A stretch of DNA of 64,000 nt from an uncultured Alphaproteobacteria bacterium (lineage in GTDB: Bacteria > Pseudomonadota > Alphaproteobacteria > CAAHEQ01 > UBA3637): positions 9,744-73,743 of the forward strand of contig CALXXW010000024.1 of the NCBI GenBank assembly GCA_944392785.1, written 5' to 3'. The notes beneath the pieces are model-generated. The model was given only the letters and a program-made list of their open reading frames with translations, ran no database searches and was not told the origin of the DNA. Positions within the stretch are counted from its first letter, which is position 1. The number at the start of each line of letters is the position of its first letter. Shown here one piece after another: positions 4,234 to 36,278 of the stretch. Position numbers and translations under genes: made by a program.

Positions 4234-4307
4234 CCTTACACATTTTTGTGGTTAAAATCATATGTTATCACATAGTCTATTTTCTTTAAAAAGTCAAGAA
4301 AAAGCGC

Positions 4308-5986: not shown

Positions 5987-5991
5987 ATTCA

Positions 5992-7929: not shown

Positions 7930-8000
7930 CTTTTATCTTTCTTAGACCCCACAAAAGATAATATGCCAGACAAAACATTAAAGAAGTGTTAACAAGTTAT

Positions 8001-8297
8001 TTATTTTTTTATCTTTTGAATGACAAGGCGTTGATGAATAACACCGTCTTTAGGATCCCATGCTAATAGCAAGTGATCTGCCTCGGGCGTTTTTACGGCA
8101 AGGCATAAAAAATCACCACAAGAAACCATATTTTCCAAATGTCCCGACACTTTGGGCTGTAATGTTTGAGATGACGATGTTTGCAACTTGCTTTTTTGAA
8201 TACGTTCTGTTATGATAAGCCCCAGTCCGGCAAACCCGGCCAGCAGCATCAAACCAAAAAGAAATGTTAACCATTTTAAAACGACAACAGATTTCAT
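8001..8297 (-). CDS. small membrane protein (98 aa, one N-terminal TM), possibly flagellum-associated or a split-off FliF N-terminal piece
   Basis: MKSVVVLKWLTFLFGLMLLAGFAGLGLII then a ~70 aa soluble part, with a GGGAG SD 5 nt upstream. It lies immediately upstream of fliF/G on the same strand, and only 35 bp separate it from the divergent rluD start. Confidence 0.35.
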   Translation of the reverse strand: MKSVVVLKWLTFLFGLMLLAGFAGLGLIITERIQKSKLQTSSSQTLQPKVSGHLENMVSCGDFLCLAVKTPEADHLLLAWDPKDGVIHQRLVIQKIKK

Positions 8298-8331
8298 GAA
8301 AACTCCCGGAATAAAAGAGGTAAATAAAAAC

Positions 8332-9372
8332 ATGACAGATACACAAGATGACGACATCTTAGAGGGGGAAGTATATCAGAATACAGAGGTCCTTGTCACG
8401 CCAAAAGTACCTGAGACACAAAAAAACTTGCGTCTGGATAAATTTTTAGTCAGTTGCTATCCTCAGTTTTCTCGTAATCAAATGATCCGTCTCATCAAAG
8501 AAGGGGCTGTGTCCGTTGAAGACTGTCCGAGCCGAACTCTTGCTCCCGATGATGAGGTGAAAGTCGGAGAACATTTTAAGATAATCCCCCCCGAGGCCAC
8601 TCCGGCAGATCCCGTTCCGGAAAACATACCTCTGGATATTCTCTATGAGGATAAAGATCTACTGGTCGTCAATAAACCGGCCGGATTAGTTGTTCATCCC
8701 GGTGCCGGGAATACACACGGAACATTGGTTAATGCTCTGTTGGCTCATTGCGGAGATTCGTTATCCGGCATTGGCGGCGTCCGACGTCCCGGTATTGTGC
8801 ATCGCATTGACAAAGATACCAGCGGTATTTTAGTCGTTGCCAAAAATGACTGGGCGCATCGCCACTTGGCAGAACAATTTGCCGAACACACGATTGAACG
8901 CGTCTACCAGGCTTTTGTATGGGGTTTTGTTAAAAACACGACCGGTGTCATCAGTGGTTATATCGGTCGATCGCCGACAAATCGCCAAAAGATGGCTGTT
9001 GTCAAAACGAACGGGAAACATGCCACAACACATTATGAACGCCTGGAGGTCTTTGGAGGGGGCCTTGCTTCTCACATTCAATGTACGTTAGAGACGGGAC
9101 GCACACATCAAATTCGCGTACACATGGCATCTATCGGACATTCTTTAATCGGTGATACGGTTTACGGTATCGTCCCCTACCATGCTCCGGAGGCATTGAA
9201 ATTCTTTCCCAGACAGGCTTTACATGCCGGCTTTTTAGGGTTCATTCATCCGACGACGGAAGAACGTATGACTTTTGAAGTGCCGTTGCCTGAAGATATG
9301 CAGACTCTGTTGAATAACCTAAGATCGCTTTCGTGTGTCGATCAGACGGATCACTTTACGCATCAAGGTTGA
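8332..9372 (+). CDS. rluD: 23S rRNA pseudouridine synthase, RluA family (RluD/RluC-like) with N-terminal S4 domain
   Basis: S4-like LDKFLVSCYPQFSRNQMIRLIKEGAV, and the catalytic HRIDKDTSG motif within VNKPAGLVVHPGAG...GIVHRIDKDTSGILVVAK. AAGAGG SD before the ATG at 8332. Confidence 0.85.
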   Translation: MTDTQDDDILEGEVYQNTEVLVTPKVPETQKNLRLDKFLVSCYPQFSRNQMIRLIKEGAVSVEDCPSRTLAPDDEVKVGEHFKIIPPEATPADPVPENIPLDILYEDKDLLVVNKPAGLVVHPGAGNTHGTLVNALLAHCGDSLSGIGGVRRPGIVHRIDKDTSGILVVAKNDWAHRHLAEQFAEHTIERVYQAFVWGFVKNTTGVISGYIGRSPTNRQKMAVVKTNGKHATTHYERLEVFGGGLASHIQCTLETGRTHQIRVHMASIGHSLIGDTVYGIVPYHAPEALKFFPRQALHAGFLGFIHPTTEERMTFEVPLPEDMQTLLNNLRSLSCVDQTDHFTHQG

Positions 9373-10335
9373 AAAAGGATATTTCTGAAAATCTTCCGGT
9401 TTCACAAAAATACCCTCGGACAAAGGATTTGTTTGAACCGATAGCGTATAAATGTCCAGTGTTAACTTGACATGTGTGAACACGTGCACGATTTGTTTTC
9501 CCAAAGGAAAGTCTCGACTGAACAAAGGAGACTCTTCTTCATAGCCCCACGGGAACTCAAATAAACCGGATAACAGGCCCTTACCGGATCGTTGACGTAT
9601 TAAAAAGCCGCCTTCTTGATTCTGAACCAGCCATAGGGAACCCTTTTTCTCTTTTTTAGGTGGCTTAACAATCAGCGGAATCTGCTCAGCAATACCCTGT
9701 TGACAGGCCAAGCAATACTGGCGCCAAGGACATATCGGACAAGAAGGTTTTGAAGGAGTACAAACGGTTGCTCCCAAATCCATAATGGCCGAAGCATAAT
9801 CAGCGCCCTTATCCGGAGGGGTAAAGCGCACGGCTTTTTGATAAATTTCCTCCCGCTTAACGGCATGTGTTAAGCCATAAAGACGAGCCATAATACGGAT
9901 AACATTACCATCCACAACCGTTTCGGGCATATTAAACGCAAAGCAACAAATGCTGGAAGCTGTATAGGGTCCTATCCCCGGAAGCTTTAAAAGAGTCTCC
10001 CGATCGGCCGGAATTTTTCCTTGGTATTGTTGCACCAACACCTGAGCACACGCATGGATTTTTTTAGCCCGTGTATAATATCCCAATCCCTGCCAAGCCA
10101 ACAACACTTTTTCCAAATCAGCGGCAGCCAATGTTTCAATGGTTGGGAAAAGCTGCATCCAGCGAACAAAATAATCAACAACTGTTTTAACCGTTGTTTG
10201 TTGCAGCATAATTTCCGAGATCCAAACCGCATAGGGATCAAAATGTGCTCCCCCTTTGACACGCCAAGGCATATCCCGACCGTGATGATAAAACCACGTC
10301 AATAATTCAACGGCACACGTTCTTTCAGATACCAT
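9319..10335 (-). CDS. mutY: A/G-specific adenine DNA glycosylase MutY
   Basis: HhH-GPD core (LPGIGPYTASSI), the 4Fe-4S loop CTPSKPSCPICPWRQYC, and a C-terminal MutT-like domain. Its 3' end overlaps the rluD 3' end by 54 nt (convergent). Confidence 0.9.
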   Translation of the reverse strand: MVSERTCAVELLTWFYHHGRDMPWRVKGGAHFDPYAVWISEIMLQQTTVKTVVDYFVRWMQLFPTIETLAAADLEKVLLAWQGLGYYTRAKKIHACAQVLVQQYQGKIPADRETLLKLPGIGPYTASSICCFAFNMPETVVDGNVIRIMARLYGLTHAVKREEIYQKAVRFTPPDKGADYASAIMDLGATVCTPSKPSCPICPWRQYCLACQQGIAEQIPLIVKPPKKEKKGSLWLVQNQEGGFLIRQRSGKGLLSGLFEFPWGYEEESPLFSRDFPLGKQIVHVFTHVKLTLDIYTLSVQTNPLSEGIFVKPEDFQKYPFSTLMRKVIRLIDTRKRS

Positions 10336-10337
10336 GT

Positions 10338-12155
10338 TTATACGTCATCCGACTGTGATGGCAAGGCAGAAGCGGACGAAGCGGTCGAATCGTTTTTTTC
10401 CGTTTGTTGACCTTTGTTTGTTTTGACAAAGACTTGCAATTTTCGACCGGATTCATCAACATTCAAAAAGACATCTTGTCCGGGCTGTATTCGCTCCTGC
10501 ATAATCAAAAGAGACAGCGGATTTTCAACCTGCTCTTGGATCAACCGCTTTAAAGCCCGCACACCAAACTTAGAGGTAAAGACCTCTTCAACGAACCAGT
10601 CTTTTGCCTTATCATCCACAATGACGTGAAATCCCACGGCCGCCGCACGCTTGAGCAATTTATTCAAATGAATATCGACAATCAAGCGTAAATGCTCTTC
10701 CTTTAACTGATGGAAAGAGACAATATCATCCAAACGGTTCAGGAACTCGGGTCGGAAATAGTCTGTCAGCTTTTCAACGCGCTGATAGCTGGGTAAATTG
10801 GCCCCGACATTTGACGTTAAAATAATAATCGTATTGCGGAAATCAACCGTCACTCCTTTGGAATCCGTCAATCGTCCTTCATCCAATAACTGCAACATTA
10901 AGTTTAAAATATCCAGATGAGCCTTCTCAATTTCATCGAACAAAACAACCTGAAAAGGTTTTAATCGCACGGATTCGGTTAATAAGCCTCCCTGCTCGAA
11001 ACCGGGAGTCCCCGGTGGTGGTCCAATTAATCGTGTCACCGATGTCCGTTCCATATACTCAGACATATCCAGACGCAACAACGCCGTTTCATCGTTGAAC
11101 ATAAAGTCAGCCAAAGATTTGGCCAATTCTGTTTTACCGACACCCGTTGTTCCGATAAACAGAAAAGAACCTATCGGGCGATTAGGATCTTGTAGACCCG
11201 AACGCGCTCGTCGTAAGGCATCTGCTACGACTTTTACGGCATTATCCTGTCCGACAACCCGCTTACGCAGCTCATCTTCCGCCGTTGCCAAACGATGTTT
11301 ATCTTCGGCATCAACCTTCTCTACAGGAATGCCTGTCCAAGCCGATATTGTCCGATTACAAAAATCTGTTTCTAACACCGTTGCATCCGGTGACAGCTCT
11401 CCCTTGGCGATATCCATCATAATCAAGCTGGCAGAGTCATCCAGTAAATCCAAAGCTTTTTCAGGAAAAAAACGTTGTTTGATATAACGCGCCGTCAACT
11501 GACAGGCCACTTTTACCGTCTGAGCCGGAATGGTAATGCCGTAATGCTCCTCAAACTGTTTTTTGCGTGCCTCAACAATGTCAATGGCCTCGTCCAATGT
11601 CGGCTCCTCCAATAAAAGAGGTTGCAGACAAGCACTGACCGCCGTATCCTTTTCGATTGACCCGACATAATGTTGTGTATCCGTTTCAATCATGCAATTT
11701 AATTGATCGCTGACAAGAGCCAATTTTAAAAATTTCGCCGGCTCTTTATTTTCAGGAGACGTTTCCGTTTGAACCAACAAGCTGACATCTTTTAAATACA
11801 GCACTTTTTGATGTTCGCTGGCAATCACGATTTGCATGACGCGCTTCATCAATTCAGCATATTCTTCTTCACTTTTTGTCTCCAGCATCACGCGCCCGAC
11901 ATCAATACCGACCACCTCTTTTTGACGCAAGTAATCCGGTGCACTTTCGGAAGCCATAAAAGCTATCAGACCTTCCATCAAGGCGGTTTTACCAATCCCG
12001 GCGGCTCCGACAACAATGGGATTGTTTCGTGTACTGCGCAATAAAATATGAATTAACCGCTCCAACTCATCTTGGCGACCAATCAGCTCCGTCAATTTTC
12101 CCGAGCGCGCCAAGAGTGTATAGTTAATCAGATATTTTTGCAGATCATCAGCCAT
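10338..12155 (-). CDS. Hsp100/ClpB-like AAA+ ATPase lacking the N-domain and the coiled-coil M-domain. D1 Walker B degenerate, D2 intact.
   Basis: D1 Walker A GAAGIGKTALMEGL, but Walker B reads VLYLKD (canonical ILFIDE). D2 has FLFIGTTGVGKTE, VVLFDEIEKAH, and ClpB-like FRPEFLNRLDDIVSFHQL. No IGF/IGL ClpP-binding loop. Only 605 aa. Confidence 0.75.
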   Translation of the reverse strand: MADDLQKYLINYTLLARSGKLTELIGRQDELERLIHILLRSTRNNPIVVGAAGIGKTALMEGLIAFMASESAPDYLRQKEVVGIDVGRVMLETKSEEEYAELMKRVMQIVIASEHQKVLYLKDVSLLVQTETSPENKEPAKFLKLALVSDQLNCMIETDTQHYVGSIEKDTAVSACLQPLLLEEPTLDEAIDIVEARKKQFEEHYGITIPAQTVKVACQLTARYIKQRFFPEKALDLLDDSASLIMMDIAKGELSPDATVLETDFCNRTISAWTGIPVEKVDAEDKHRLATAEDELRKRVVGQDNAVKVVADALRRARSGLQDPNRPIGSFLFIGTTGVGKTELAKSLADFMFNDETALLRLDMSEYMERTSVTRLIGPPPGTPGFEQGGLLTESVRLKPFQVVLFDEIEKAHLDILNLMLQLLDEGRLTDSKGVTVDFRNTIIILTSNVGANLPSYQRVEKLTDYFRPEFLNRLDDIVSFHQLKEEHLRLIVDIHLNKLLKRAAAVGFHVIVDDKAKDWFVEEVFTSKFGVRALKRLIQEQVENPLSLLIMQERIQPGQDVFLNVDESGRKLQVFVKTNKGQQTEKNDSTASSASALPSQSDDV

Positions 12156-13250
12156 TTACTCATCCTCTTCTACTGCACCGAAGGTAAAGCTTTGACGATG
12201 ACGCAATTCTTTTCCATCAATTTCAGCTTCAAAATAATCCTGATCTTGGATATCTTTATCCTCCAGCACAATATAGGCATTATAGGCCGATCCTTGCATA
12301 GACGCCTGCATATAAGCTTTCTGCGGATCACCCCAAATCAATTTTTCCGAATCATCCGGCAATCCATACGTTTCAAACATTAAATTCCAAAAAGCCTCTT
12401 TGCGCGCTTGTTTTTTAGCCAAGTTTCGCCGCGTAAAATTCAACGAATTATCTCCCTCATTTTCATAGAAAATTTTATAAGAAACATTATCTGTTGCCGG
12501 TGTTGAAAACAGCACCTGCATTTTTTCACCCGCCTCCGGCTTAGCCAGAGTCATCGAAGAAATATATTGCATACCGTCAGCTTGAGCCGCTTCTAAAATA
12601 CACCGTTTAACAGCATCCGGCACCACCACACCTGCCGTTCGGCAACGATTCTCATAATAAGAGGTTCGAAACAAAGGAATTCCCTGCTCTATACGCGTAA
12701 TTTTATACCCGTTTTCAAGTGCTGCCTCTTGAATCTCATCCGGCGTTAATCCCAGTGACATGCCCGAAATATCAAACATAAAGACATCATGCAACTTCCC
12801 GAACAACTCCTCGGCAACCTGAGCGGACATTTGCTTTGTTCGACGAGCGGCTTCAGCCTCTGCGGCACGAATGCGCTCTTCTTCAGCTCGTTTTGTTTTT
12901 TCCAACTCGGCTTTTAATTGTTCCGACAACTGTTCATCATTGGCATTTTCCTTAGTCAAGGCAATCGGACGAGAGGGCTGAGCTTTCTCTGTTGAAAGGC
13001 TCTCTTTTTCAGCAACGGCCGTTGGCGAAGTCGATGCTGTCTGCGCATTTTTCTCCACTTTCCCCAAATTAATTTCGACACGTGGCAGCGGCTCAGGTGT
13101 CACGACCAACTTTTCCAAAGGCTCGGCATTTCGACCGATATTCGGGACACTGGGTTCAAAATCATCAAAAAGCGGTATTTCCACTTCCTGAGCAAAGACC
13201 ACCGTCGACAGCAGCATGACTGACAAAGTAAAAACAATATTTTTCATCAA
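12156..13250 (-). CDS. secreted protein with a central coiled-coil (signal peptide, ~340 aa mature), function unknown. Stop is directly abutting the ClpB-like gene start.
   Basis: Signal peptide MMKNIVFTLSVMLLSTVVFAQE, and a charged coiled-coil stretch EQLKAELEKTKRAEEERIRAAEAEAARR. No recognisable catalytic motif. Confidence 0.5.
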   Translation of the reverse strand: MMKNIVFTLSVMLLSTVVFAQEVEIPLFDDFEPSVPNIGRNAEPLEKLVVTPEPLPRVEINLGKVEKNAQTASTSPTAVAEKESLSTEKAQPSRPIALTKENANDEQLSEQLKAELEKTKRAEEERIRAAEAEAARRTKQMSAQVAEELFGKLHDVFMFDISGMSLGLTPDEIQEAALENGYKITRIEQGIPLFRTSYYENRCRTAGVVVPDAVKRCILEAAQADGMQYISSMTLAKPEAGEKMQVLFSTPATDNVSYKIFYENEGDNSLNFTRRNLAKKQARKEAFWNLMFETYGLPDDSEKLIWGDPQKAYMQASMQGSAYNAYIVLEDKDIQDQDYFEAEIDGKELRHRQSFTFGAVEEDE

Positions 13251-13353
13251 CGACCCCTTTTTTAGCTTGACCTTTTCATCCGAAAAAGATACAAATATGA
13301 TATCATGTTTATAGTTTTAAACAAATTATTTAATAAAAGCAAGGAAAAAAACG

Positions 13354-17606: not shown

Positions 17607-17915
17607 ATGACGTATACAATGTTTATTTGGTTAATGATTCTCTTCGGCGGCCTGTGGACAATGGCGATGAGTTTTCTGGTTTTTTCATTTTTGACACTCA
17701 AACGTTATCAACATATGATGCGCTTTATTGCTCAACGTTTAGAAAGAATTGAGCACCGTTTGACGCCTCATTCCTCAGAGGGGAAAAAAGAACAAGCCGC
17801 AATACCCCCTTCTGAAAAACAATTTGTTATTTCTAAGGATGAACCCCTGGCCAAATATGCCGATGTCTCTCTGCCCGAAAGTGTTCATATTGACTTTGTG
17901 GATACACATTCATGA
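17607..17915 (+). CDS. small membrane protein (two TM), unknown function
   Basis: MTYTMFIWLMILFGGLWTMAMSFLVFSFL..., with an AAGGAA SD and a 4-nt overlap with the downstream solute-binding protein gene. Confidence 0.35.
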   Translation: MTYTMFIWLMILFGGLWTMAMSFLVFSFLTLKRYQHMMRFIAQRLERIEHRLTPHSSEGKKEQAAIPPSEKQFVISKDEPLAKYADVSLPESVHIDFVDTHS

Positions 17916-19681
17916 AATACTCGTGGTTGCTTGGCGCATTATTATTGTTATCTGTTTCGGCGACAGCCGCTCCCCAATCCGGTATCGCCATGCACGGAAA
18001 ACCAAAATATACCGCAAACTTTCAAGCTTTTGACTACGTCAACCCTGACGCTCCCAAAGGAGGAACACTCAAACAAGCCGCCATCGGCAGCTTTGATACA
18101 TTTAATCCTTTTGTTATCAACGGCGTTGCAGCGGCGGGTATTGGGTTAACTTATGATACCTTGATGAAACAGAGTGCCGATGAGCCTTTTTCGCTTTACG
18201 CCCTCATTGCCGAAAGTATAGAAATTGACACCCAAAGGCATCGCGTTATTTTTAAAATCAATCCCAAGGCTCGTTTCAGCGACAACACACCCATTACACC
18301 CGAAGATGTTGTTTTTTCATTTAACATTTTAAAAGAAAAAGGCCTTCCGACCTATCGCGCCTATTATCAGGATGTTTTACGCGTTGAAGCAACCGAGACG
18401 GATGTGATTTTTTACATAAATCCTCAGGTTTCAAATCGAGAACTTCCCTTAATTTTGGGGGAATTACCCGTTCTTTCCAAGGCATGGTGGCAGGATAAAG
18501 ATTTTACAAAGACCATTCTGACACCACCCATCAGCAGTGGTCCTTATCTCATTGATACGTTTGAGGCCGGCAAATTTATTTCCTATCGTTTGAACCCTTC
18601 TTATTGGGCAAAAGACCTCAATGTCAATCGCGGATACTATAACTTTGACACGATTCGCTATGATTACTACCGAGACGCAACGGTAGCCATTGAGGCGTTC
18701 AAAGCCGGTTTGTTTGATGTACGGATGGAAAACGAGGCCAAAAAATGGGTCACTTTTCAAGATATGAAAGAGGTTCAAGAAGGTCAAATCATCATGCGTT
18801 CCTTTGAACACCACATGCCCCGTGGCATGCAGGGGTTTGTTTTCAACACGCGACGAGCTGTTTTTCAAGATCCCAGAGTAAGAGCGGCATTAGCTTATGC
18901 CTTTGATTTTAATTGGTTGAATACGAATTTATTTTATGGGTTGTATCGGCGAACGAACAGCTTTTTTGAAAACTCTTCTCTGAAGGCCACAGGTTTGCCG
19001 ACGCCGGCGGAGAAAAAATTATTAGAGCCTTGGCGTGATACGTTGCCACCGGAGGTATTTACCACACCTTATACAGCCCCTCAGAATAAGGGAAACATCC
19101 GTTGGAATCTTGAAATAGCTCTTAAACTATTAAATGAAGCCAAATGGTTTGTCCGACAGGGGAAACTGGTCAATGAGAAAAATGAACCGTTCACATTTGA
19201 GATTTTATTGGATGCTCCATCCGCGGCTGCCTGGGAGCGGATTGTTTTACCGTTTGTCGGCCAACTCAAACGATTAGGAATAGAGGCCCGCATACGTATA
19301 GTAGACGCCATTCAATACAAAAACAGGTTGGATAACTTCGATTATGACATGATCGTTTTTGTTTGGGGCCAATCGCTTTCGCCGGGGAATGAGCAGCGTT
19401 ATTTTTGGGGTTCACAAAGCGCTCTGACACACGGGTCCTGGAATTTCAGCGGTATCCAAAACCCAGCCGTTGATGCCTTAATTGAGGCGATTGTCCAAGC
19501 CAACTCACAAGAAGAACTGGAAACAGCCGTCCATGCCTTGGATCGCGTTCTGCTATGGTCACATTTGGTCATCCCTCATTGGCACACACCCTATCAATCA
19601 TTTATCTATTGGAATAGATTTGATATGCCTCAAACAACCCCTATGAAAGGTATGGACCTCTTGACTTGGTGGAAAAAATAA
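17912..19681 (+). CDS. ABC transporter substrate-binding protein, family 5 (YejA/oligopeptide-type)
   Basis: Signal peptide, SBP_bac_5 fold. Long collinear resemblance to YejA-like binding proteins (GGTLKQAAIGSFDTFNPF...LYALIAESIEID). Confidence 0.85.
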   Translation: MKYSWLLGALLLLSVSATAAPQSGIAMHGKPKYTANFQAFDYVNPDAPKGGTLKQAAIGSFDTFNPFVINGVAAAGIGLTYDTLMKQSADEPFSLYALIAESIEIDTQRHRVIFKINPKARFSDNTPITPEDVVFSFNILKEKGLPTYRAYYQDVLRVEATETDVIFYINPQVSNRELPLILGELPVLSKAWWQDKDFTKTILTPPISSGPYLIDTFEAGKFISYRLNPSYWAKDLNVNRGYYNFDTIRYDYYRDATVAIEAFKAGLFDVRMENEAKKWVTFQDMKEVQEGQIIMRSFEHHMPRGMQGFVFNTRRAVFQDPRVRAALAYAFDFNWLNTNLFYGLYRRTNSFFENSSLKATGLPTPAEKKLLEPWRDTLPPEVFTTPYTAPQNKGNIRWNLEIALKLLNEAKWFVRQGKLVNEKNEPFTFEILLDAPSAAAWERIVLPFVGQLKRLGIEARIRIVDAIQYKNRLDNFDYDMIVFVWGQSLSPGNEQRYFWGSQSALTHGSWNFSGIQNPAVDALIEAIVQANSQEELETAVHALDRVLLWSHLVIPHWHTPYQSFIYWNRFDMPQTTPMKGMDLLTWWKK

Positions 19682-27461: not shown

Positions 27462-30400
27462 TTAAAACCATCCGGTTGAACGATTACAACTTCCCGTTAA
27501 CCAGTTATAGTATCGACCCTTACAAGCCTGACAAGATTCATACGAGGTTTGTGTATCTCTTTTCTCCGTGCATGCCACACACTTGTTGGCGCTGGTTGAA
27601 AAGAACTGCCCTGTCGGACAAACACATGTTTTCCCGTTGCCGAATCCTTGCCCAGAGGGGCAAAGACGACACCTCTTATTATACCAGTAGCGCTGAGGAC
27701 ATTTTTGACACTCTTCCCATGTTGTATTGGACGCCGCTGATGATAACGAGCAAAGAGCACACATATTCGTTCCATAGAAAAAGCGATTATCACAAGACGA
27801 ACATTCGTCCTCGGTGGCTCTGATAGTTCCGTTAACCGAGCAGGATTGACATTGATTGGAAGTATTCAAAATTTCCCCAGCCGCACATGTACATCCCAAC
27901 CCATCTGAGGTAGCATTTGTGCCGTTGGGACACAGGTAGGACCGAGCATCCGATGGTTTCCAATAACGATTAGGACACTGCCGACTTTCATCCTGTGCAA
28001 CGGCTATAGCCGATGTGTAGTCACAAGAAATACAGGCTCCATCCGAAGAGCGCCACAGACGCTCACCCTGACCACAAGACATACATTCGGCTTGCGTTGT
28101 CGCATGACTTGCTGTTTTACTTGTACAACTCAAGCATGTATTCGCCGCATAGGAAAAATACTGGCCCTCCGGACAAACACATCCCAGCCCATCCGCTGTT
28201 GCCTTTGTTCCGCTGGGACAAATATAGCTATACCCCTTATCCGATCGCCAATAACGATTGGAGCAACGCCGACTTTCTTCATATGAGGCCTTAATGGCTA
28301 CGGAACGGCTACACAGCGAACACGTATCATCGTCGGCTAAAAAGCGTATATTATCTCCACAACCATGGCAAGCGGCCTCAGTGGTTTTAGGCGTATTTGA
28401 TGCGGCACACAAATACGATTTACCATCCTCTGCAAAATAGCGTTTCCCTATGCCGCAGCTGGCACTTGCCTGCTCGGATGAGACAACGGCCGTTGTGATA
28501 TCACAATCAACACATGTTTTATTGCTGGCATTAAAGAAAGTCTCTCCGGCAGAACAGGAACACGAAAGCCCATCTTCTGCCACCAAAGAACCATTCGGGC
28601 ATAGGATGCACCGATCCGTCTGCCAATAACGATTCTGACATGTTTGACAGGCCTCTAACGTCGCATAGCGATTGACCGTATCCGCACAAGAATAGCACTT
28701 ATTATCTTGCGCCGAGAAAAACGCATCTTGCGCGCATCCGCTACAAACAAGGCCGTCTTCACTGGTTGTATTGCCGGTGCATACCAGGCACATATTGTCC
28801 TTTTCTCGCCAATATCGACCTTCACAGACATGACAAGCCCCAAAAGTGGCTTGTTTCGATGCCGTATTTTCACAAGGATAACACTTGCCGTCAGCATAGG
28901 AAAAATACTCGCCCGCCGGACAAACGCATCCCAACCCATCCGCCGTTGCCTTTGTTCCGGTGGGGCACATATAACTATACCCATTATCCGATCGCCAATA
29001 GCGATTTTGACACCGTTGCGAATTTTCCAAAGATGTCGCAAATCTTCCCGTGTATTGACACGCATAACACTGATTCTTGGACGACAGCGTCCGCACATTC
29101 GTCCCACAAGAGAAACAAGCCTCGGCTTCTGTGACAGGATAAGAGGTTGTTTGGGTACATAGATAGGAATAAGAGTTGCTAGCCATATAGCGCACGCCCG
29201 TACCGCAACTGGCACTGGCATCGGCATAAGTCAAAATCGCTGTCGTAGTATCACAAGCCGCACAAACTGTCGGCTTTGCTTGATTAAAGAATGTCTCACC
29301 TATCGAGCAAGAACAAAACAATCCATCTTCAGAGCCTATTCCACCCTCACCACACAGCATACAAGAATTATTTTTCCAATATCGATTTCCGCAGGCTTGG
29401 CACTCAGCCAAGGTTGTTGTCCGAGCCCGAGTCTCTGAGCAGGGATAGCATTTATTGTCGGCATAAGAAAACATATACCCTTCGTCACACTCACAGGCCT
29501 CTCCGGATTCCGAAGCCTTCATTCCGGTCGGGCAAAGGCGACATTGTCCTGTTTTGCTTTCCCAATACCGATTGTCGCACATTTGACACTCTTGAAGCGT
29601 TGAGACGACTTTCTTCGTATTCGTGCATTTGAAGCACGCATTATTTGCCTGAGCGGTAAACCATCCCGGACATGAACTGCAACTGAGATTCTCTGCCAGA
29701 ATGGTACTTTCCTTCAGTTCACTACACGAATAGCAACTTCCATTTTTATCCATTAAATGATTTGTATCTTGGCAAACACATCCCGTTCCCTCCTCATTGG
29801 GACGAGCCGAATAAGCACACGAGTAGCATGTTCCATCCGTATCCATCCAACCTTTTTCCAAATCGCAGACACAAGATTGCGTTTTTTCATCCCATATGGC
29901 TCCGATTGTTTGACACCGATGACAATTCGGGTACTCACCGAAGAAGTAGATCTGAGTGTTGCACTCACATGTTTGTGTTTCCGCATTATAACGCCCGGCA
30001 CGATATTCGGCCGAATAAGCAGGAGAGGAAACGGTATACACAGCCTCAGGACACATACTATCACAGGTTTTTGTGTCATAATTCCAAGCTTGATCTGCAC
30101 CGGCACATAACTGACATGAACCATCGGCTTTGGTATAATAGCGAGCGGCTTCATTACAGACGCATTGCCCATCTTTTTCCGTAAATCCCTTCGATTCATC
30201 ACATCCGGGCAAGCGACACCAGTTATTGATCATTTGAAGTCCCTCAGGACAAGCACATTCACCATTACTTTGTATCACCTGTCCCCGATCACAGAACCAA
30301 TCGCAACGCCCGTCTTGTTTTTCCTTTCCAAAGGGACATACACAATTTTCATCGGCATCAATCAAGCCACAGATATTTTGTCCCAATGCTTTTTCCGGAT

Positions 30401-32267
30401 CTCCGAACACACACATATTATTGCTGTCACAGGAAGCACCTTCTACCGGACACTTGTAGCCTACAATTTCAGATTGTAGAGAATAGGAAATGTTAACTTC
30501 TGTCGAACCAGTTTCAGTACACGCGCCGGTATACACCCATGTATTCGGAGAATTGACAGCATAAACTCTGGAACCGGCAGAACATCCGACAGCATTCATA
30601 TCAATATAAACCGGAAATTTCAGTGTATAATTGGCATATCCGACTTGATGAATCGTATCATCCGTATAATGCCCGCCGTTCGGCATGTCATTATAGGTAT
30701 TGTATTGCGTACAGCGACAACCGGATAATCCATAGTCATAGTTGTGATACCCATTCCATCCGTCCAAGAATCCGACCCGAATACGGCCTTCTAACGTATC
30801 GACACGTACCCATTTATCATGCTCGGTGCAGAAGACCATATTCCCATTGGCTGTGAAGGGTTCAGAGTTCGGGATACACGCAATTTTTTCACAAGCCCCC
30901 AAACGACCATAATATCCTTTCTTTGTATCACATATACAAGCCTGTGTATCCGGATCATATATGGCATCATCCGGGCACTTAACACATCCGTTAGCCGTTA
31001 AGTAATATCCATTGGCCGTATCACAGATACAAGCACCTGTTGCATCTGTTATATATCCAGCTTCTTGAGGACATTGACAAACACCGGCTTCATTCTTTTT
31101 AGGCAGAACACACATACAAACGCCGTTGACGATTTCAAACCCCAAAGAGGTATCACACACACATTTTCCATCTCCGTCCAGATAAAATCCATTCTGCGTA
31201 TCACACGTGCAGATACCCTCCGGTGAACACATCTCATAACTATCGCAATCCTCTTTCTTCAGACATTCAACGCATTTTTTGATTGGAGCCCCCGTTGTGT
31301 TATCTGTTCCATCGACTAAATAAGGCCGCTCTTTAGGGCATAGGCATTGATTTTGAAAGCCGTCTTTGATAATCTCTACAAACCCATATTGAGTGGGACA
31401 CACACATTGATCTCCTGTATCCAAATAATTGGATAAACAAGCACATTTCTGAGCCCCTGTCAGCCCTGCAGCACCATCCATTCGGTCGGGGTCCGTACAT
31501 TGACACGCACACGCATACGGATCCGGATACATATGCTGAGGATTGTCACATGCCGGCACTTGCGCTGCATCAAACACGCATAATCCCCCTATTTCAACCG
31601 AGCAATCCGGACACCCCGAGGTATTGTTATCCGACGGGTATCCCAGAGCATCCGTAAAAACAATCCCCACATCCAACGTCTCTTCCTCTTCGTCTATACC
31701 CCCCATGCAAATCCGACGCACGATGCTTTTGTCGGCATCATCTTTAATCTGACTTTCCGACCAAACCATAAAAGGCTCCCGTGGCATCTGTTGCATGGGT
31801 TCCAGCAACAAAACATAATCGTATGAAATGTTGGACAGTAAAATATCTGAGCAAATTTTCGTGGAAAATTGATTCAAATTAACGATCATGCCACGGCCAT
31901 CTTTCAACATACTGGCCGATAAAACCGTATCCCCGACGGACGCTTGAAAGGCTTCTTTATATTGAGAGCCGGTATATGCCGGAACATCTGAAATATAACC
32001 GTCCCGATTTAATAAATGAAGCCATTCAAGCTCTACCTGTTCCTTTTCTGAAAGAGCACGATAATCAGCCTGTTGCTGCTCTAAATAATGTCCCGTCACG
32101 ACACCGGCTACCGTTTTAGAAATTAAATCTTCTACCGTTGCAATTTCATGTTTGCGGTTGGAATACTGCCACCCCCAAAACACGGCTATGGATAAAAGCC
32201 CTATTAAAAACAATACAATTAAAAGCTCGGTCGTGGTTGTCCCTTTTTCATCTGTCTGTTTTAACAT
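27462..32267 (-). CDS. giant (1601 aa) type IV prepilin-like protein with a huge cysteine-rich tandem-repeat ectodomain (ephrin-receptor-like / furin-like / VSP-like repeats)
   Basis: N-terminus MLKQTDEKG|TTTTELLIVLFLIGLLSIAVFWGW, which is a class III (prepilin peptidase) signal: short basic leader ending in Gly, Glu at +5, and a ~20 aa hydrophobic helix. AGGAGA SD 6 nt upstream of the ATG at 32267. The remainder carries ~250 Cys in repeated units such as CxCDTxxGYYL..GxC, and also C.NRYW....Y.CP.GT.AT.DGLGC.CP.G.YFSY. TAA stop verified at 27462. Confidence 0.8.
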   Translation of the reverse strand: MLKQTDEKGTTTTELLIVLFLIGLLSIAVFWGWQYSNRKHEIATVEDLISKTVAGVVTGHYLEQQQADYRALSEKEQVELEWLHLLNRDGYISDVPAYTGSQYKEAFQASVGDTVLSASMLKDGRGMIVNLNQFSTKICSDILLSNISYDYVLLLEPMQQMPREPFMVWSESQIKDDADKSIVRRICMGGIDEEEETLDVGIVFTDALGYPSDNNTSGCPDCSVEIGGLCVFDAAQVPACDNPQHMYPDPYACACQCTDPDRMDGAAGLTGAQKCACLSNYLDTGDQCVCPTQYGFVEIIKDGFQNQCLCPKERPYLVDGTDNTTGAPIKKCVECLKKEDCDSYEMCSPEGICTCDTQNGFYLDGDGKCVCDTSLGFEIVNGVCMCVLPKKNEAGVCQCPQEAGYITDATGACICDTANGYYLTANGCVKCPDDAIYDPDTQACICDTKKGYYGRLGACEKIACIPNSEPFTANGNMVFCTEHDKWVRVDTLEGRIRVGFLDGWNGYHNYDYGLSGCRCTQYNTYNDMPNGGHYTDDTIHQVGYANYTLKFPVYIDMNAVGCSAGSRVYAVNSPNTWVYTGACTETGSTEVNISYSLQSEIVGYKCPVEGASCDSNNMCVFGDPEKALGQNICGLIDADENCVCPFGKEKQDGRCDWFCDRGQVIQSNGECACPEGLQMINNWCRLPGCDESKGFTEKDGQCVCNEAARYYTKADGSCQLCAGADQAWNYDTKTCDSMCPEAVYTVSSPAYSAEYRAGRYNAETQTCECNTQIYFFGEYPNCHRCQTIGAIWDEKTQSCVCDLEKGWMDTDGTCYSCAYSARPNEEGTGCVCQDTNHLMDKNGSCYSCSELKESTILAENLSCSSCPGWFTAQANNACFKCTNTKKVVSTLQECQMCDNRYWESKTGQCRLCPTGMKASESGEACECDEGYMFSYADNKCYPCSETRARTTTLAECQACGNRYWKNNSCMLCGEGGIGSEDGLFCSCSIGETFFNQAKPTVCAACDTTTAILTYADASASCGTGVRYMASNSYSYLCTQTTSYPVTEAEACFSCGTNVRTLSSKNQCYACQYTGRFATSLENSQRCQNRYWRSDNGYSYMCPTGTKATADGLGCVCPAGEYFSYADGKCYPCENTASKQATFGACHVCEGRYWREKDNMCLVCTGNTTSEDGLVCSGCAQDAFFSAQDNKCYSCADTVNRYATLEACQTCQNRYWQTDRCILCPNGSLVAEDGLSCSCSAGETFFNASNKTCVDCDITTAVVSSEQASASCGIGKRYFAEDGKSYLCAASNTPKTTEAACHGCGDNIRFLADDDTCSLCSRSVAIKASYEESRRCSNRYWRSDKGYSYICPSGTKATADGLGCVCPEGQYFSYAANTCLSCTSKTASHATTQAECMSCGQGERLWRSSDGACISCDYTSAIAVAQDESRQCPNRYWKPSDARSYLCPNGTNATSDGLGCTCAAGEILNTSNQCQSCSVNGTIRATEDECSSCDNRFFYGTNMCALCSLSSAASNTTWEECQKCPQRYWYNKRCRLCPSGQGFGNGKTCVCPTGQFFSTSANKCVACTEKRDTQTSYESCQACKGRYYNWLTGSCNRSTGWF
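27810..29315 (-). repeat. intragenic tandem duplication (~750 bp unit, 2 copies, diverged but with locally near-identical stretches) inside the giant Cys-rich gene
   Basis: The protein module CSCS(I/A)GETFFN...NRYWRSD(N/K)GYSY(M/I)CP(T/S)GTKATADGLGCVCP(A/E)G(E/Q)YFSYA... occurs twice ~251 aa apart. Opposite-strand shadow ORFs at 28013..28294 and 28766..29134 are ~80% identical to each other at a ~750 nt offset. Confidence 0.7.
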
Positions 32268-32277
32268 TTTCTGTCTC

Positions 32278-33978
32278 CTATTCGTTTTCGGGTGGTATAT
32301 ACATCGGCCAATTGCCTTGAACAACATCATCTAATGACTGCAAAGAGGCCCCCATTAAAGACCTGTAAATCCAATAATTGACGATGATACGCTCAACAAA
32401 ACTGCGTGTTTCCTTAGAAGGAATACTTTCCAAGAACAATAACGGATCATCGTTATAGTTCATTTTCTTTTTCCATTTCATCAAATTTCCCGGCCCGGCA
32501 TTATAGGCAACCGCCGTAAAAATCAAATTATTCTGCACCGCCTCCGATGCCATCAAACGCAACAAATAATTTTGCCCCAAAGCCAGGTTATAAGCCGGTT
32601 CTTTCAGCTTTTGTCGCTTCCAGGGCATTTGTAAAAGCGCCGCCTGCTCCCGTCCCGTCTGAGGCATAATCTGCATCAACCCCAATGCCCCCATGGCACT
32701 TTCGGCACGTTTATTAAAACAAGACTCCTGCCGCACAAAGGCAAAGACCAGCGCTTTGTCCACCTTCCATCCATCCTGAGGCGTCCAATTAGGAGCCGGA
32801 TACCGTGCCTCATCCCCATTTAATGTTCCCGCAATTCCCAATAAATCATCCGCAAAACCATTTTTTTGCGAAATCATCAACAAAATACCTTGAGCTTCTG
32901 TATCTGCCTCCAGATACAACTTAGCCAACTCTTTTTGGGCCCACTCATCTGCACCGATTTGTCGCAAGGCATAAAAGCGTGTCAAAGCCGGATGAGAAAA
33001 ATCTCCGATAACATCATCACTGGGTGTTGCCGGTTCATCCCAAACATGAGACAAATCTTGTCCCAACATGCGCATCGCCAGCAAGCCATAGAACGTCCGA
33101 GGGAAAGAGGCTGCCTGCTCCAAATAAGCCCCCACCGCCTGATATTTTCCCTGTTTTAAAAGAGAACGAGCCGCCCAAACCGCTCCGGCGTTTTTAAGCA
33201 ACGGGTAAGCCGTTTTTGCCTTTGCCACCTTTTCAAAGTAATCCCCTGCCTGCGGATAATTTTCCTGTCGCCATGAGACCAATCCGGCTGTCCACCAGGC
33301 TAACGGGATTTCCATTCCAGAATCCAAAACCGGTCTTAACTGTTCCATCGCCAATAAGTCGGCATCATCTATGAAATATGAAAAAGCCAAGGCTGTACGC
33401 GCCAATAATAAATCTCTTTTTGACAACAGTTTTTTGGTCGTTTTCTCTTCGATAACACGTTTAGCATTTAACGTTTTGCCTGCCAAAATATAACGTTCGA
33501 TTTGACGCATAATCCGTTGCGCCTTTTGACGATTAGCCGCATTTAGATAGGAAAAAGATAATCCGCGAATCAAATCAATCGGCTCGATACGTTGAACACC
33601 CAAACATGCTCCTGAATTTCCGCCGAAAATACCGCGCGGACGCGGCGGCAATTTAGCTTTTTTTTGAACACCCAAGGCATAGACATCACTGGCAACGGCC
33701 AGATCACTGTATTTATTCAACCAATTGACGATCTCTGTCCCTTTTGTGCGGTATCCTTTTGAAAAATAACGATCGTATAAAACATATCCCATCAACAGTT
33801 TATCTTTTATTGTCCCCTCGACTTTTTTAGCCGTCTTAAAATCATTTGCTTGATGCGCCTTTAGGATCCGCTGATAGGCGGCGACATCCCTATCGCTCAA
33901 AATAGCCGGCCCCGCCACCGTCGGCAAGGCAAAGCCCAAAAGCAAAAGGATATGACAAATAAAATGAATGACGCGCAA
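32278..33978 (-). CDS. slt: soluble lytic murein transglycosylase (Slt70-like; superhelical N-domain + family 1 LT domain)
   Basis: Signal peptide. The catalytic ES motif in VRQESCFNKRAESAMGALGLMQIMPQTG, and AYNAGPGN. Its TAG stop at 32278..32280 overlaps the SD of the giant prepilin-like gene, 10 nt before that gene's ATG. Confidence 0.85.
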   Translation of the reverse strand: MRVIHFICHILLLLGFALPTVAGPAILSDRDVAAYQRILKAHQANDFKTAKKVEGTIKDKLLMGYVLYDRYFSKGYRTKGTEIVNWLNKYSDLAVASDVYALGVQKKAKLPPRPRGIFGGNSGACLGVQRIEPIDLIRGLSFSYLNAANRQKAQRIMRQIERYILAGKTLNAKRVIEEKTTKKLLSKRDLLLARTALAFSYFIDDADLLAMEQLRPVLDSGMEIPLAWWTAGLVSWRQENYPQAGDYFEKVAKAKTAYPLLKNAGAVWAARSLLKQGKYQAVGAYLEQAASFPRTFYGLLAMRMLGQDLSHVWDEPATPSDDVIGDFSHPALTRFYALRQIGADEWAQKELAKLYLEADTEAQGILLMISQKNGFADDLLGIAGTLNGDEARYPAPNWTPQDGWKVDKALVFAFVRQESCFNKRAESAMGALGLMQIMPQTGREQAALLQMPWKRQKLKEPAYNLALGQNYLLRLMASEAVQNNLIFTAVAYNAGPGNLMKWKKKMNYNDDPLLFLESIPSKETRSFVERIIVNYWIYRSLMGASLQSLDDVVQGNWPMYIPPENE

Positions 33979-33989
33979 AAGATTTTCTC

Positions 33990-34826
33990 CTAAAACGGAA
34001 CATATTGTATGCGAGATTTACAATCCTTTTCGGATAGCTCTCCCACCTGACATATTTCCACTTCCATTTTGGGCACTTCCAAAATATGTTCACATGCCAC
34101 ACCGTTTAAATTGATGGCTTGACTTTGCTTTCCCTTCTTTGCGACACCGGAAAATGACAAGTTCACTTTTTGTGTTCCGAAAGTCAAACTAACGGACAGT
34201 TGCTTTATCTCCATCGGTAATTGATTTTCCAAGTTCATGGTCCCGCTGCAAAACGAAAAATTACGCGCCGGAGGCAAGGTATTTGAAACATTATCCAAAA
34301 CCAACAGCACGCGTCCTTTATCCATATTTGTTTGTATTTCTGACTCGTCTGACTGGGCTGCCAACATATCAAAAGCCTCATCTAAGTCAGCGGCTTGTGT
34401 CAAGTCGGCGGCAGAATCCACACTTTCTTCGGCGACATTTATCAATCCCTCATCGACTACGGCATCGGACCCGAATATAGCAATCATCGAATCGCTGGCC
34501 GTTCGAGAAGGAACACGTGCGGACGGTTGAGCAACCGCAGATCCGGCTGCGGGCAAAGATGTCTTTTTTGATGTTTTTTTGGGGGGCAAGGGTGTCGGCC
34601 CTGACTGTTTTGAGGGTACTTCATTCACGACGGGAGCCCTTTGGGACGTTTGTCGGCCCATCTGTTGAGGTGTAGTCGGCTGAATCACAGATGTTTTGGA
34701 TGCGGCATTTTCTAGCTGAGAAGAGCTTCCCGACGACCGCACGACCGCCAAATCAGGGAACAAAGCTTGAGCCCGTACATCACCAACGGCAATCACACAA
34801 ACCAGAAATCCCAAAATATATCGCAT
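33990..34826 (-). CDS. secreted low-complexity (Ser/Pro/Thr/Ala-rich) protein of unknown function
   Basis: Signal peptide MRYILGFLVCVIAVGDVRAQA, a long low-complexity linker, and a C-terminal ~100 aa globular part. No recognised motif. Confidence 0.45.
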   Translation of the reverse strand: MRYILGFLVCVIAVGDVRAQALFPDLAVVRSSGSSSQLENAASKTSVIQPTTPQQMGRQTSQRAPVVNEVPSKQSGPTPLPPKKTSKKTSLPAAGSAVAQPSARVPSRTASDSMIAIFGSDAVVDEGLINVAEESVDSAADLTQAADLDEAFDMLAAQSDESEIQTNMDKGRVLLVLDNVSNTLPPARNFSFCSGTMNLENQLPMEIKQLSVSLTFGTQKVNLSFSGVAKKGKQSQAINLNGVACEHILEVPKMEVEICQVGELSEKDCKSRIQYVPF

Positions 34827-34910
34827 CTTATCATTCCTCCCTTTACTTCTGACTCCTTTTGGAGTAAGATATTATCCATGTTTCTTACAGTGTAAAGGAT
34901 TATCAATCAA

Positions 34911-36278
34911 ATGGCAACATTTTTTTTCTGTGGAATCGGCGGCATCGGCATGAGTGCGATTGCTTTGTATCTTAAAAAGACCGGACATGTCGTTTGTGGA
35001 TCTGACCGTTCATTTGACCAGCATATAAATACGGACATGCAGCATCGGCTGGAAAAAGCCGGCATTATCCTTTTTCCGCAGGATGGATCCGGTATGAACG
35101 AGCATATTGACGTGGTCGTTGTATCAACGGCCGTCGAAAGTCGCATTCCGGATATCCAAAAAGCTCAAGAACTCAATCGACCGATTAGACGACGTGCAGA
35201 AATTCTGGCTGATATTTTACACACGCATGTTGGGATTGCCGTCGGCGGGACCAGTGGAAAAACAACCGTGACGGCGATGGTCAATCATATTTTATGTTTT
35301 GCCGAACAAGATCCTCTGATGATTAACGGCGGCTTATCTCTCAACACATACGGAACAGATGACATATCCAATCTTCATTTGGGTCAAGGAAAGCTTTGCG
35401 TCATTGAAGCCGATGAATCGGATGGTTCCATCAACCTATATACACCGGCCATTTCGGTTGTCACAAACATTTCTTTAGATCACAAGCCTATCCACGAGAT
35501 TCGTCCATTGTTTCAGAACTTTTTAAATCGAACGACTCAAGGAATCGTCACAAATGCGGACGATCCCGAAACACAAACTCTCCAGATAACGCATCCACAC
35601 CATATACGTTTTTCCTTAAACGATCCGACCGTCGAGTTGTTTGCAGATGACATCTGCATTTTTCAAAAGGATATGACTTTTAAAGTCAACGGTCAAAAGG
35701 CTCGTCTTCCCATGATCGGACGACATAATATCGAAAATGCTTTGGCCGCTTTGGGGGCGTGCCAACTGGCCGGCGTTTCGCTGGAAACAGGAATCATGGC
35801 TCTGGCCTCTTTTAAAGGGACCGCCAGACGCATGCAGACACTTGGTACTGAAAAAAATATCACGGTTATTGATGACTATGCCCATAACCCGGCTAAAATT
35901 CATGCAACACTGGATGCGTTATCGACTCTACCGGGACGCTTGATTTGCGTGTTTCAACCGCATGGTTTTGCGCCGACACGTTTGATGAAAGAAGAACTGC
36001 TTCATATGTTAAAACAAACCCTCAACCAAAATATAATTTGGGTCATGCCGGACATTTTCTATGCCGGTGGAACAGTCGCGCAGGATATTTCTTCTCAAGA
36101 TATTATCTCCCCGCTTCAAGAGGCCGGGAAACAGGCATTTTATGTCCCTCGAACCGAGATACCGACCTATCTGAAACAGATAGCACAAGCCGGTGACCGC
36201 ATTATTATTATGGGTGGACGAGATAACACATTAACCGAATTGGGATATTCTGTATTAACCACATTGAAAGAGAACTAA
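34911..36278 (+). CDS. mpl: UDP-N-acetylmuramate:L-alanyl-gamma-D-glutamyl-meso-DAP ligase (murein peptide ligase Mpl), MurC/Mpl family
   Basis: N-terminal GIGGIGMSAIAL, ATP site GTSGKTTVTAM, and MurC/Mpl collinearity. The adjacent ldcA supports a recycling role over MurC. Confidence 0.75.
   Translation: MATFFFCGIGGIGMSAIALYLKKTGHVVCGSDRSFDQHINTDMQHRLEKAGIILFPQDGSGMNEHIDVVVVSTAVESRIPDIQKAQELNRPIRRRAEILADILHTHVGIAVGGTSGKTTVTAMVNHILCFAEQDPLMINGGLSLNTYGTDDISNLHLGQGKLCVIEADESDGSINLYTPAISVVTNISLDHKPIHEIRPLFQNFLNRTTQGIVTNADDPETQTLQITHPHHIRFSLNDPTVELFADDICIFQKDMTFKVNGQKARLPMIGRHNIENALAALGACQLAGVSLETGIMALASFKGTARRMQTLGTEKNITVIDDYAHNPAKIHATLDALSTLPGRLICVFQPHGFAPTRLMKEELLHMLKQTLNQNIIWVMPDIFYAGGTVAQDISSQDIISPLQEAGKQAFYVPRTEIPTYLKQIAQAGDRIIIMGGRDNTLTELGYSVLTTLKEN

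Follow-up and report, generated by a model that had tools for sequence, protein, structure and literature searches.

The locus analysed here raises the question of what a protein could be that opens like a type IV prepilin and continues as a very long series of Cys-rich repeats. It is encoded on the minus strand of a 64,000-nucleotide stretch of DNA from an uncultured Alphaproteobacteria bacterium (positions 9,744 to 73,743 of contig CALXXW010000024.1), which we call the window and which a first-pass annotation had read from its letters alone. The product, the giant protein in what follows, very probably has a pilin-derived N-terminus, and we lean, if at most slightly, towards the view that the protein as a whole is a modular type IVb-like minor pilin with a disulfide-laddered stalk, working through a full display-and-adhesion mechanism. 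The gene and the parts of its product are listed below, where A2 is the alignment of the N-domain family built from 13 relatives.

27462..32267, minus strand: coding sequence of the giant pilin-like Cys-rich protein, complete, 1,601 codons plus stop (open reading frame (ORF) list and translation)
32274..32279, minus strand: Shine-Dalgarno sequence AGGAGA, 6 nucleotides (nt) 5′ of the ATG and overlapping the TAG stop of the upstream SLT gene (read from the sequence)
32241..32267, minus strand: putative class III leader, residues 1-9, MLKQTDEKG, ending in Gly-1 (sequence; Gly near-invariant in A2)
32169..32240, minus strand: residues 10-33, TTTTELLIVLFLIGLLSIAVFWGW, with Glu+5 and the hydrophobic alpha1-N segment (E14 invariant in A2)
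31614..32168, minus strand: pilin-head-like domain, residues 34-218, with the pair C139...C187 and the terminal conserved strand LDVGIVF (conserved in 13 relatives)
30879..31613, minus strand: first Cys-rich region, residues 219-463, CxC hairpins of the CxCDTxxGYY..G type (module list; DUF5874)
30453..30878, minus strand: low-Cys insert domain, residues 464-605, without internal repeats, 53-58% identical in relatives P0002 and P0003
29682..30452, minus strand: second Cys-rich region, residues 606-862, mixed CxC, CxxC and single-Cys hairpins (weak DUF5874 match, 15.8 bits)
27465..29681, minus strand: array of four-hairpin units of ~62 amino acids (aa), residues 863-1601 (self-comparison and unit alignment)

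The minus-strand ORF runs uninterrupted to its 3′ end at 27462. Its earliest in-frame ATG, at 32330, would make it overlap the upstream SLT gene; the ATG at 32267 (MLKQ...) is favoured because it comes after the SLT stop (TAG, 32278-32280), is preceded by AGGAGA at 6 nt and is also the start chosen when genes were called independently on a contig of 98% identity (L001). The 1,601-aa product contains 155 Cys (9.7% of residues), and the gene does not differ in GC content (0.45-0.48) from the window around it. The counterpart of the window is contig CASFTE010000015.1 of the metagenome-assembled genome (MAG) GCA_949297705.1. In public assemblies the 90%-identity cluster of the protein has four members, which we treat as alleles: all are 1,601 aa long without indels, P0182 being identical to the window protein and P0001, P0183 and P0184 98% identical. 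Among the 44 positions that vary between them there is not one of the 155 Cys, where chance would predict 4.3 (P~0.014), and residues 1-40 are invariant. The ratio of nonsynonymous to synonymous substitution rates (dN/dS) against L001 is 0.29 for the giant gene and ~0.1 for four neighbour genes with known families. Given four alleles of equal length and these ratios, the gene encodes a single protein under purifying though somewhat relaxed selection, as the first-pass annotation had assumed; the intact alleles, the dN/dS value and the absence of Cys changes led us to reject a pseudogene. Variation in repeat number, for which the same annotation had proposed a comparison with relatives, was not found among the four alleles, where the number is constant. 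A word-indexed protein search with the full-length query matched only a 98% allele, and aligning the whole protein and the insert domain against genome contigs and two Joint Genome Institute metagenomes found nothing.

An exhaustive HMMER search, with residues 1-1200 as query and cluster representatives as targets, recovered 60 relatives, 24 of them at E<=1e-10. Thirteen of the 60 match from residue ~3-13 onwards and share the leader and a ~200-aa N-domain, after which differing Cys-rich tails follow; the other relatives share the repeats, and P0002 and P0003 the insert domain as well. A profile of the N-domain, used in the word-indexed protein search, retrieved four proteins and no more. The giant protein begins with MLKQTDEKG-TTTTE-LLIVLFLIGLLSIAVFWGW, and has the short hydrophilic leader, the Gly-1, the Glu+5 and the ~20 mainly hydrophobic residues of a class III signal; its leader Gly corresponds, in alignments with solved pilins, to that of GFTLIE, and no other window protein has a class III-like N-terminus. 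In most relatives the corresponding sequence is ..E[ST]G-R-[ST]-M-[VLI]-E-[IM]-L-G-V-L-A-I-[IM]-G-[VIL]-L-S. Throughout A2 the Glu+5 (E14) is invariant and Gly-1 (G9), C139 and C187 are near-invariant. The first-pass annotation had described the repeats as taking the place of a pilin head; residues ~35-218, however, form a conserved, non-repetitive, pilin-head-like domain of ~200 aa with only two Cys (C139, C187).

The leader, written ..ESG/RSMVEMLGVLAIIGVLS with a slash at the presumed cleavage point, marks a large paralogous family in Alphaproteobacteria MAGs from animal and human gut. A 218-aa paralog with the same leader (locus L072) matches Pfam PilS at 69.3 bits and Bundlin at 47.3 bits, and a profile of eight ~200-aa leader-bearing proteins (A5) matches BfpA (4.6e-10), TcpA (1.1e-7) and PilS (1.5e-6) in the PDB. 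Because this profile matches the solved BfpA, TcpA and PilS, the ~200-aa paralogs are, as judged by homology, type IVb pilins. Compared with hhalign, A2 and A5 match with 99.1% probability (E 8e-19) over 135 columns that include the first conserved Cys (C139). Searching A2 against PDB sequences returned, as best matches, almost exclusively type IV pilins, aligned such that Gly-1 and Glu+5 coincide, at weak E values of 0.003-1. Among the relatives, P0013 (17.6) and P0016 (17.0) pass the TIGR02532 model (cutoff 16.3), and N_methyl is weakly matched in five of the 13 N-domain relatives. We conclude from these comparisons that the first ~218 residues are homologous to, though diverged from, the type IVb-like pilins found in this clade; for the leader and alpha1 this assignment is firm, for the head no more than suggestive.

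A number of observations speak against a pilin. Over the first 60 residues of the giant protein the N_methyl model (PF07963) scores 10.6 bits against a cutoff of 21.2 (E 0.46), the match being limited to Glu+5 and the helix (residues 14-30), and TIGR02532 does not match the window sequence. Neither PilS (PF08805) nor Bundlin (PF05307) matches residues 1-218 or any of the 13 A2 members. When 35, 44 or 59 residues are trimmed, the A2/A5 probability falls to 58%, 26% and 15% (E 1e-4 to 2e-3); the trimmed alignments keep the same register, which at 58% still takes in C139, and most of the full signal comes from the leader and alpha1. Residues 1-214 were modelled with AlphaFold2 (AF2) on an alignment of 5 sequences, which gave a long helix (9-76) with strands after it; the predicted local distance difference test (pLDDT) score is only 54, and the Foldseek matches of the model, to kinases, are meaningless at that value and were discarded. 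Positions +1 to +4 read TTTT, where the leader family has R-S-M-V and canonical pilins are hydrophobic at +1, and because of this departure cleavage could be impaired. In the 64-kb window there is no gene of a type IV pilus, type II secretion system (T2SS) or Tad system, that is no prepilin peptidase, assembly ATPase, platform or secretin, and the same machinery was not found in ~10 kb past the right edge or ~5 kb past the left edge. No prepilin peptidase turned up in any fetched locus either, in a scan with a crude motif expression whose sole match was an ABC permease and which is not evidence of absence. The same repeat types stand behind ordinary Sec signals in relatives P0003, P0008 and P0024, so that the stalk as such needs no pilus. 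Finally, the passage of a 1,380-aa appendage through a secretin is putative.

The signal described as textbook class III by the first-pass annotation is therefore better called divergent, a qualification that leaves the motif MLKQTDEKG/TTTTE and the helix standing and takes account of the Thr residues at +1 to +4 and the failed thresholds of curated hidden Markov models (HMMs). At +1 the hydrophobic residue of canonical pilins is replaced by Thr in the giant protein, by Arg in most relatives and by Ala in P0007. Many substitutions at +1 are tolerated by prepilin peptidases, and the +1 residue is variable in type IVb pilins. Full-length, the protein matches no NCBIfam model; its N-terminus is matched by the pseudopilin models PRK10506, GspH and ComGE alone, all far under cutoff. 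By the prepilin HMM check that the first-pass annotation itself had put forward, N_methyl, the prepilin reading fails on the window sequence alone; it is supported at the level of the family, through the leader-sharing relatives and the small paralogs that score as type IVb pilins.

The same observations can be read as those of a degenerate signal-anchor, of pilin-leader descent but no longer cleaved, that would tether the protein to the inner membrane and leave the stalk with a periplasmic or envelope role. The failed N_methyl and TIGR02532 thresholds, the TTTT at +1 to +4 and the lack of pilus genes in the window and in the ~5-10 kb checked past its edges would all agree with such an anchor, and the neighbouring genes for SLT, Mpl and an LD-carboxypeptidase would fit a peptidoglycan-linked position. 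It has to be set against this that Gly-1 and Glu+5, whose link with cleavage and assembly is established, are kept, that residues 1-40 do not vary in the four alleles, that the tolerance at +1 just mentioned makes the Thr less telling, that a stalk of ~85 modules should be far longer than the periplasm is wide, and that the SLT linkage is not conserved beside relative P0020. We consider the anchor unlikely.

For the reading as a modular type IVb-like minor pilin, the assembly machinery has to be sought elsewhere in the genome, as the first-pass annotation had correctly implied by placing the peptidase and assembly ATPase outside the window. Related MAGs have genes for a T2SSE ATPase (231 bits) and a T2SSF platform protein a few kb away from leader-bearing genes, and on longer contigs the same ATPase belongs to an operon of the order TcpQ, Secretin, PAP_PilO, a gene without assignment, T2SSE (731 aa) and T2SSF. 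A set of TcpQ, secretin, PilO, T2SSE and T2SSF typifies type IVb systems, among them the R64 thin pilus and Tcp. In two of these contigs (L082 and L084, ~3488-13341) the type IVb-like operon also holds two conserved ORFs without a Pfam match, one of ~344-450 aa and the other of ~350-403 aa. No pilin or peptidase gene is found within 10 kb of the operon in L082 and L084, which argues for pilin genes that are dispersed around the genome. About 6 kb downstream of it, L082 has three consecutive ankyrin-repeat proteins (17819-20211), a eukaryote-like domain, and at the same position in L084 there is an autotransporter of 1,195 aa in which Chlam_PMP repeats are faintly recognizable.

The architecture of the remainder of the protein was derived from self-comparison and from splitting the sequence at Cys doublets, which gave ~85 hairpin-sized modules of 13-19 aa, each opening with CxC or CxxC. 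The first-pass annotation had put ~1,500 aa of the protein in Cys-rich modules; the CxC repeats and the NRYW-type units are there as described, and their extent is ~1,240 aa, residues 464-605 being the low-Cys insert. In the C-terminal array the 62-aa unit has the order CxxCxNRYW / CxxCPxGxxAxxDGL / CxCxxGxxF / CxxC...ATLxE, and a higher-order duplication of ~249 aa lies within residues 863-1601. On DNA, Tandem Repeats Finder found no repeats, and most repeat copies are only ~30-55% identical in amino acids; one pair of stretches inside the gene (28147-28259 and 28894-29006, 113 nt, spacing 747 nt or 249 codons) is 90% identical. Since this identity far exceeds that of most copies, it points to a segmental duplication or a gene conversion in the recent past; that stretch excepted, the repeats are old at the nucleotide level. 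The sole Pfam match of the giant protein is DUF5874 (PF19202), which scores 21 bits in a full-length scan, under the cutoff of 27.1, and 36.7 bits over four stretches when residues 219-466 are scanned alone; it covers ~15% of the protein and is also precomputed for allele P0001. The insert domain gave no match in Pfam and PDB sequence searches, and antibody V-domain matches to it at E>=0.03 were set aside as not significant.

Whether these repeats are eukaryote-like, as the first-pass annotation had proposed by naming ephrin-receptor-like, furin-like and VSP (variant-specific surface protein) families, has different answers for sequence and for fold. Ephrin_rec_like (PF07699, cutoff 23.1 bits), Furin-like, VSP and Paramecium surface-antigen models gave no match at E<=10 in scans of the full length, of six fragments and of two single units, HMMER filters being liable to drop very weak matches. 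The Ephrin_rec_like threshold is passed by the C-termini of P0002 (30.7) and P0008 (25.3), P0009 and P0004 staying under it. The proposed structure prediction of a repeat module was carried out for residues 878-1001 with AF2, on an alignment of 11 internal copies, and gave consecutive beta-hairpins throughout at pLDDT 83. The Foldseek matches of this model in the PDB are mostly eukaryotic disulfide-rich ectodomains; the best is Meckelin (E 0.02, prob 0.97), followed by 4-1BB/RANK/OX40, mastigoneme, ELAPOR1, the EphA2 cysteine-rich domain (CRD) and EGFR, and none reaches E<=1e-3. The eukaryote-looking relatives P0010 (2,942 aa), P0033 and P0045 share with residues 219-463 the CxCD-type (DUF5874) repeat; the DUF5874 family was found in P0010 and in P0021, the latter combining DUF5874 and DUF6273. 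The NRYW-type unit, in turn, was observed only in proteins with bacterial leaders, ordinary Sec signals or truncated N-termini, and the 62-aa unit appears to be specific to the bacterial family. The label "eukaryote-like" is weakly supported: it is fair for the fold class and for some relatives, and by sequence the repeats of the giant protein itself fall in no eukaryotic family.

A recent horizontal transfer of the repeats from a eukaryote, either host or protist, would turn the stalk into a mimic or decoy of host molecules of the tumour necrosis factor receptor (TNFR) or ephrin-receptor type. This idea draws on the best fold matches, all of them eukaryotic Cys-rich ectodomains, on the eukaryote-looking HMMER relatives P0010, P0033 and P0045, and on the view that Ephrin_rec_like is eukaryotic in origin, its rare bacterial copies being ascribed to horizontal gene transfer (PMC6993872). 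It is at odds with a gene whose GC content equals that of the window, with the bacterial pilin-like leader on most relatives and with the confinement of the NRYW unit described above, and we regard it as very improbable.

Scanning the GTDB species genomes for GR[ST]MVE[MI]LG gave at least 597 matches, at least 584 of them confirmed. The carriers are nearly all named "MAG: Alphaproteobacteria bacterium" and come from the gut of rabbit, buffalo, deer, sheep and human, Acetobacter sp. CAG:977 being among them; the copies per genome are often many (at least 10 loci from JAZUBA01, for example). The housekeeping proteins of the window are 50-74% identical to those of leader-bearing gut MAGs; the host is a gut alphaproteobacterium and not, as the first-pass annotation had considered, a symbiont of amoebae or arthropods. 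In the fetched MAG loci 107 ORFs bear the leader, 27 of them with at least 500 aa and 38 with at least 6% Cys; they range from ~200 aa with ~1% Cys up to 1,152 aa with ~8% Cys. Relatives that are named by their sources are called "hypothetical protein". The giant protein, which the first-pass annotation ranked among the largest prepilin-like proteins, is exceeded within its own family by P0004, with at least 1,897 aa. In five loci (L062, L056, L017, L026, L015) leader-bearing genes are clustered three to four per locus, ~200-aa low-Cys members being mixed with Cys-rich ones of 500-750 aa. In locus L007 a 288-aa leader ORF (4183-5049) is followed, after a gap of 23 nt, by a leaderless Cys-rich (9.8%) ORF of 604 aa (5073-6887); the pair probably stems from a single large pilin-like gene that a frameshift or an assembly error has broken in two, and its intact counterpart in L044 has 901 aa. 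Our literature searches on DUF5874, on RF32 and pili, and on bacterial Ephrin_rec_like yielded no account of the giant-protein family.

Such numbers of paralogs with the leader in single genomes, and the diversity of their Cys-rich tails, are also what one would expect if the class III leader served export only, the type IV filament machinery releasing the proteins or building from them a surface layer other than a pilus, a variable, protease-resistant coat like that of the Giardia VSPs. The comparison would be with archaeal sugar-binding proteins that have class III signals (the bindosome) or with export of the T2SS type; archaea are known to have class III signals on proteins other than pilins (PMC3047682), which gives this idea a precedent. 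Dense disulfides would moreover suit a protease-rich gut. The family retains, however, a whole pilin-head-like module with a conserved disulfide, well beyond a mere leader, and a dedicated Bas-like system was not seen. Export without a pilus seems to us quite unlikely.

As a modular minor pilin, the giant protein would be built from a short class III-like leader with Gly as its last residue, a pilin module comprising Glu+5, alpha1 and a ~180-aa head with one disulfide, and a graft of ~1,380 aa, in which ~85 disulfide-clamped beta-hairpin modules would form a thin stalk with one globular insert of 140 aa in between. Its N-terminal helix would insert it into the inner membrane, a prepilin peptidase encoded elsewhere in the genome would cut it after Gly9, and up to ~77 disulfides would be formed by the periplasmic Dsb system. 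It would then be incorporated as a low-abundance subunit, probably at the tip, into a type IVb-like pilus of the TcpQ-secretin-PilO-ATPase-platform kind, from which the protease-resistant stalk would extend by tens of nm and bind a ligand in the gut. The figure of some tens of nm is an estimate by analogy with the dimensions of typical TNFR-like modules, and cleavage, assembly into a pilus, the position at the tip, the length of the stalk and adhesion are steps that we infer. A broader proposal, which we put forward tentatively and consider doubtful, is that uncultured gut Alphaproteobacteria have expanded a family of type IVb-pilin-anchored, disulfide-laddered stalks with many paralogs per genome, up to at least 1,600-1,900 aa long and with a non-canonical G/R(T)xxxE leader overlooked by standard pilin models. 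A type IVb pilus machinery would display or export them, and they would serve as interchangeable, protease-resistant adhesins or as a surface coat and be the bacterial counterpart, on a pilin chassis, of the Giardia VSPs.

The idea that pilins can present adhesive modules is well established (Raynaud et al., 2021, PMC8179133). In Streptococcus sanguinis, PilB (vWA module) and PilC (lectin module) likewise combine a class III signal, a pilin module and a grafted module that the filament presumably presents for binding (PMC8179133), and the giant protein has the architecture of this group, an N-terminal pilin module followed by modules that are not pilus-specific. The modular pilins of Raynaud et al. 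were catalogued via N_methyl (IPR012902), which the giant protein fails, and it would have been missed. The most extreme example cited there (PMC8179133) has 860 aa and 12 extra motifs, compared to 1,601 aa and ~85 modules here. Unlike the S. sanguinis proteins, the giant protein belongs to a diderm alphaproteobacterium and is known from sequence alone.

Type IVb minor pilins with large C-terminal domains include PilV of the R64 thin pilus, CofB of enterotoxigenic Escherichia coli and TcpB of Vibrio cholerae. The giant protein resembles them in its type IVb context, in that its small paralogs match PilS and Bundlin and the operon of its relatives is like those of the R64 pil and tcp systems, and in having a pilin module that bears a C-terminal binding domain, presumably at the tip; the many alternative C-termini per genome recall the interchangeable C-termini of PilV. 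PilV, CofB and TcpB are, however, only ~430-520 aa long and carry beta-repeat or lectin-like domains rather than disulfide ladders, and variation in PilV comes from a shufflon, whereas in the family of the giant protein it comes from separate paralogous genes. It also differs from them at +1, which is R in the family and T in the giant protein, and in the location of its gene outside a pilus operon. With Ephrin_rec_like/GCC2_GCC3, the TNFR CRDs, the Meckelin CRD and the Giardia VSPs it shares CxxC/CxC hairpins of ~15 aa and a predicted elongated, disulfide-laddered rod, and its CxxCPxGxxA..G..CxC motifs resemble the Ephrin_rec_like consensus; against these eukaryotic ectodomain families it has no sequence match, and the likeness in fold is under significance.

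What is new, compared with the known modular pilins and type IVb adhesive minor pilins, is the size, the disulfide-ladder cargo, a leader that escapes curated models and the expansion of the family in gut Alphaproteobacteria. If the minor-pilin reading is correct, it would extend the modular-pilin idea well past the catalogued sizes, to a subunit with ~77 potential disulfides, and it would mean that a whole leader class, G/RSMVE... (G/TTTTE in the giant protein), carried by abundant but uncultured gut Alphaproteobacteria, escapes N_methyl-based surveys of pilins. It would raise the questions of how large a cargo the secretin of a type IV pilus can pass, how a diderm oxidizes such a protein, and whether gut bacteria use eukaryote-style disulfide-laddered stalks to bind host or glycan ligands and to resist proteases. 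The leader pattern, the N-domain profile and the 62-aa NRYW unit define the family for mining of gut metagenomes.

The giant gene may be the last of three genes read in the same direction, the two upstream of it being the following.

32278..33978, minus strand: Slt70-like lytic transglycosylase, 566 aa, 10 nt from the giant gene (Pfam SLT, 83 bits)
33990..34826, minus strand: 278-aa protein with a Sec-type signal and without a family match, first of the possible three-gene unit

This string of genes is conserved in L001, and co-transcription of the SLT and giant genes is possible; sigma-70-like hexamers at 34869-34917, 5′ of the 278-aa gene, are weak evidence, and the scan for promoters and terminators was indecisive on an operon. 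The 278-aa protein has a Pro/Ser/Thr-rich middle and a dN/dS of 0.41. The SLT gene was considered as a marker of a pilus locus and rejected, as it encodes a 566-aa Slt70-type enzyme amid peptidoglycan-recycling genes and is not linked to P0020.

Elsewhere in the window, a two-piece (permuted) alphaproteobacterial transfer-messenger RNA (tmRNA) at 1132-1483 on the minus strand (Rfam alpha_tmRNA, 229.8 bits) places the organism in the Alphaproteobacteria. A 645-aa ORF (5992-7929, minus strand) has a FliF C-terminal domain (residues 83-220) together with the N, M and C domains of FliG, all three complete, and looks like a FliF-FliG fusion without the usual N-terminal part of FliF; FlhF-like (5036-6133) and FlhG/MinD-like (4308-5039) genes come after it, and further flagellar genes were not noted in the window. 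The gene of a ClpB-like AAA+ protein that has only 605 aa and is devoid of the Clp_N domain (10338-12155, minus strand) is abutted upstream by a 364-aa ORF without a Pfam match (12156-13250, minus strand), and the two may represent a split or unusual ATPase of the Clp/ClpV type. An AdhE-type bifunctional aldehyde/alcohol dehydrogenase gene (23160-25934, plus strand) is consistent with a fermentative, anaerobic lifestyle in the gut.

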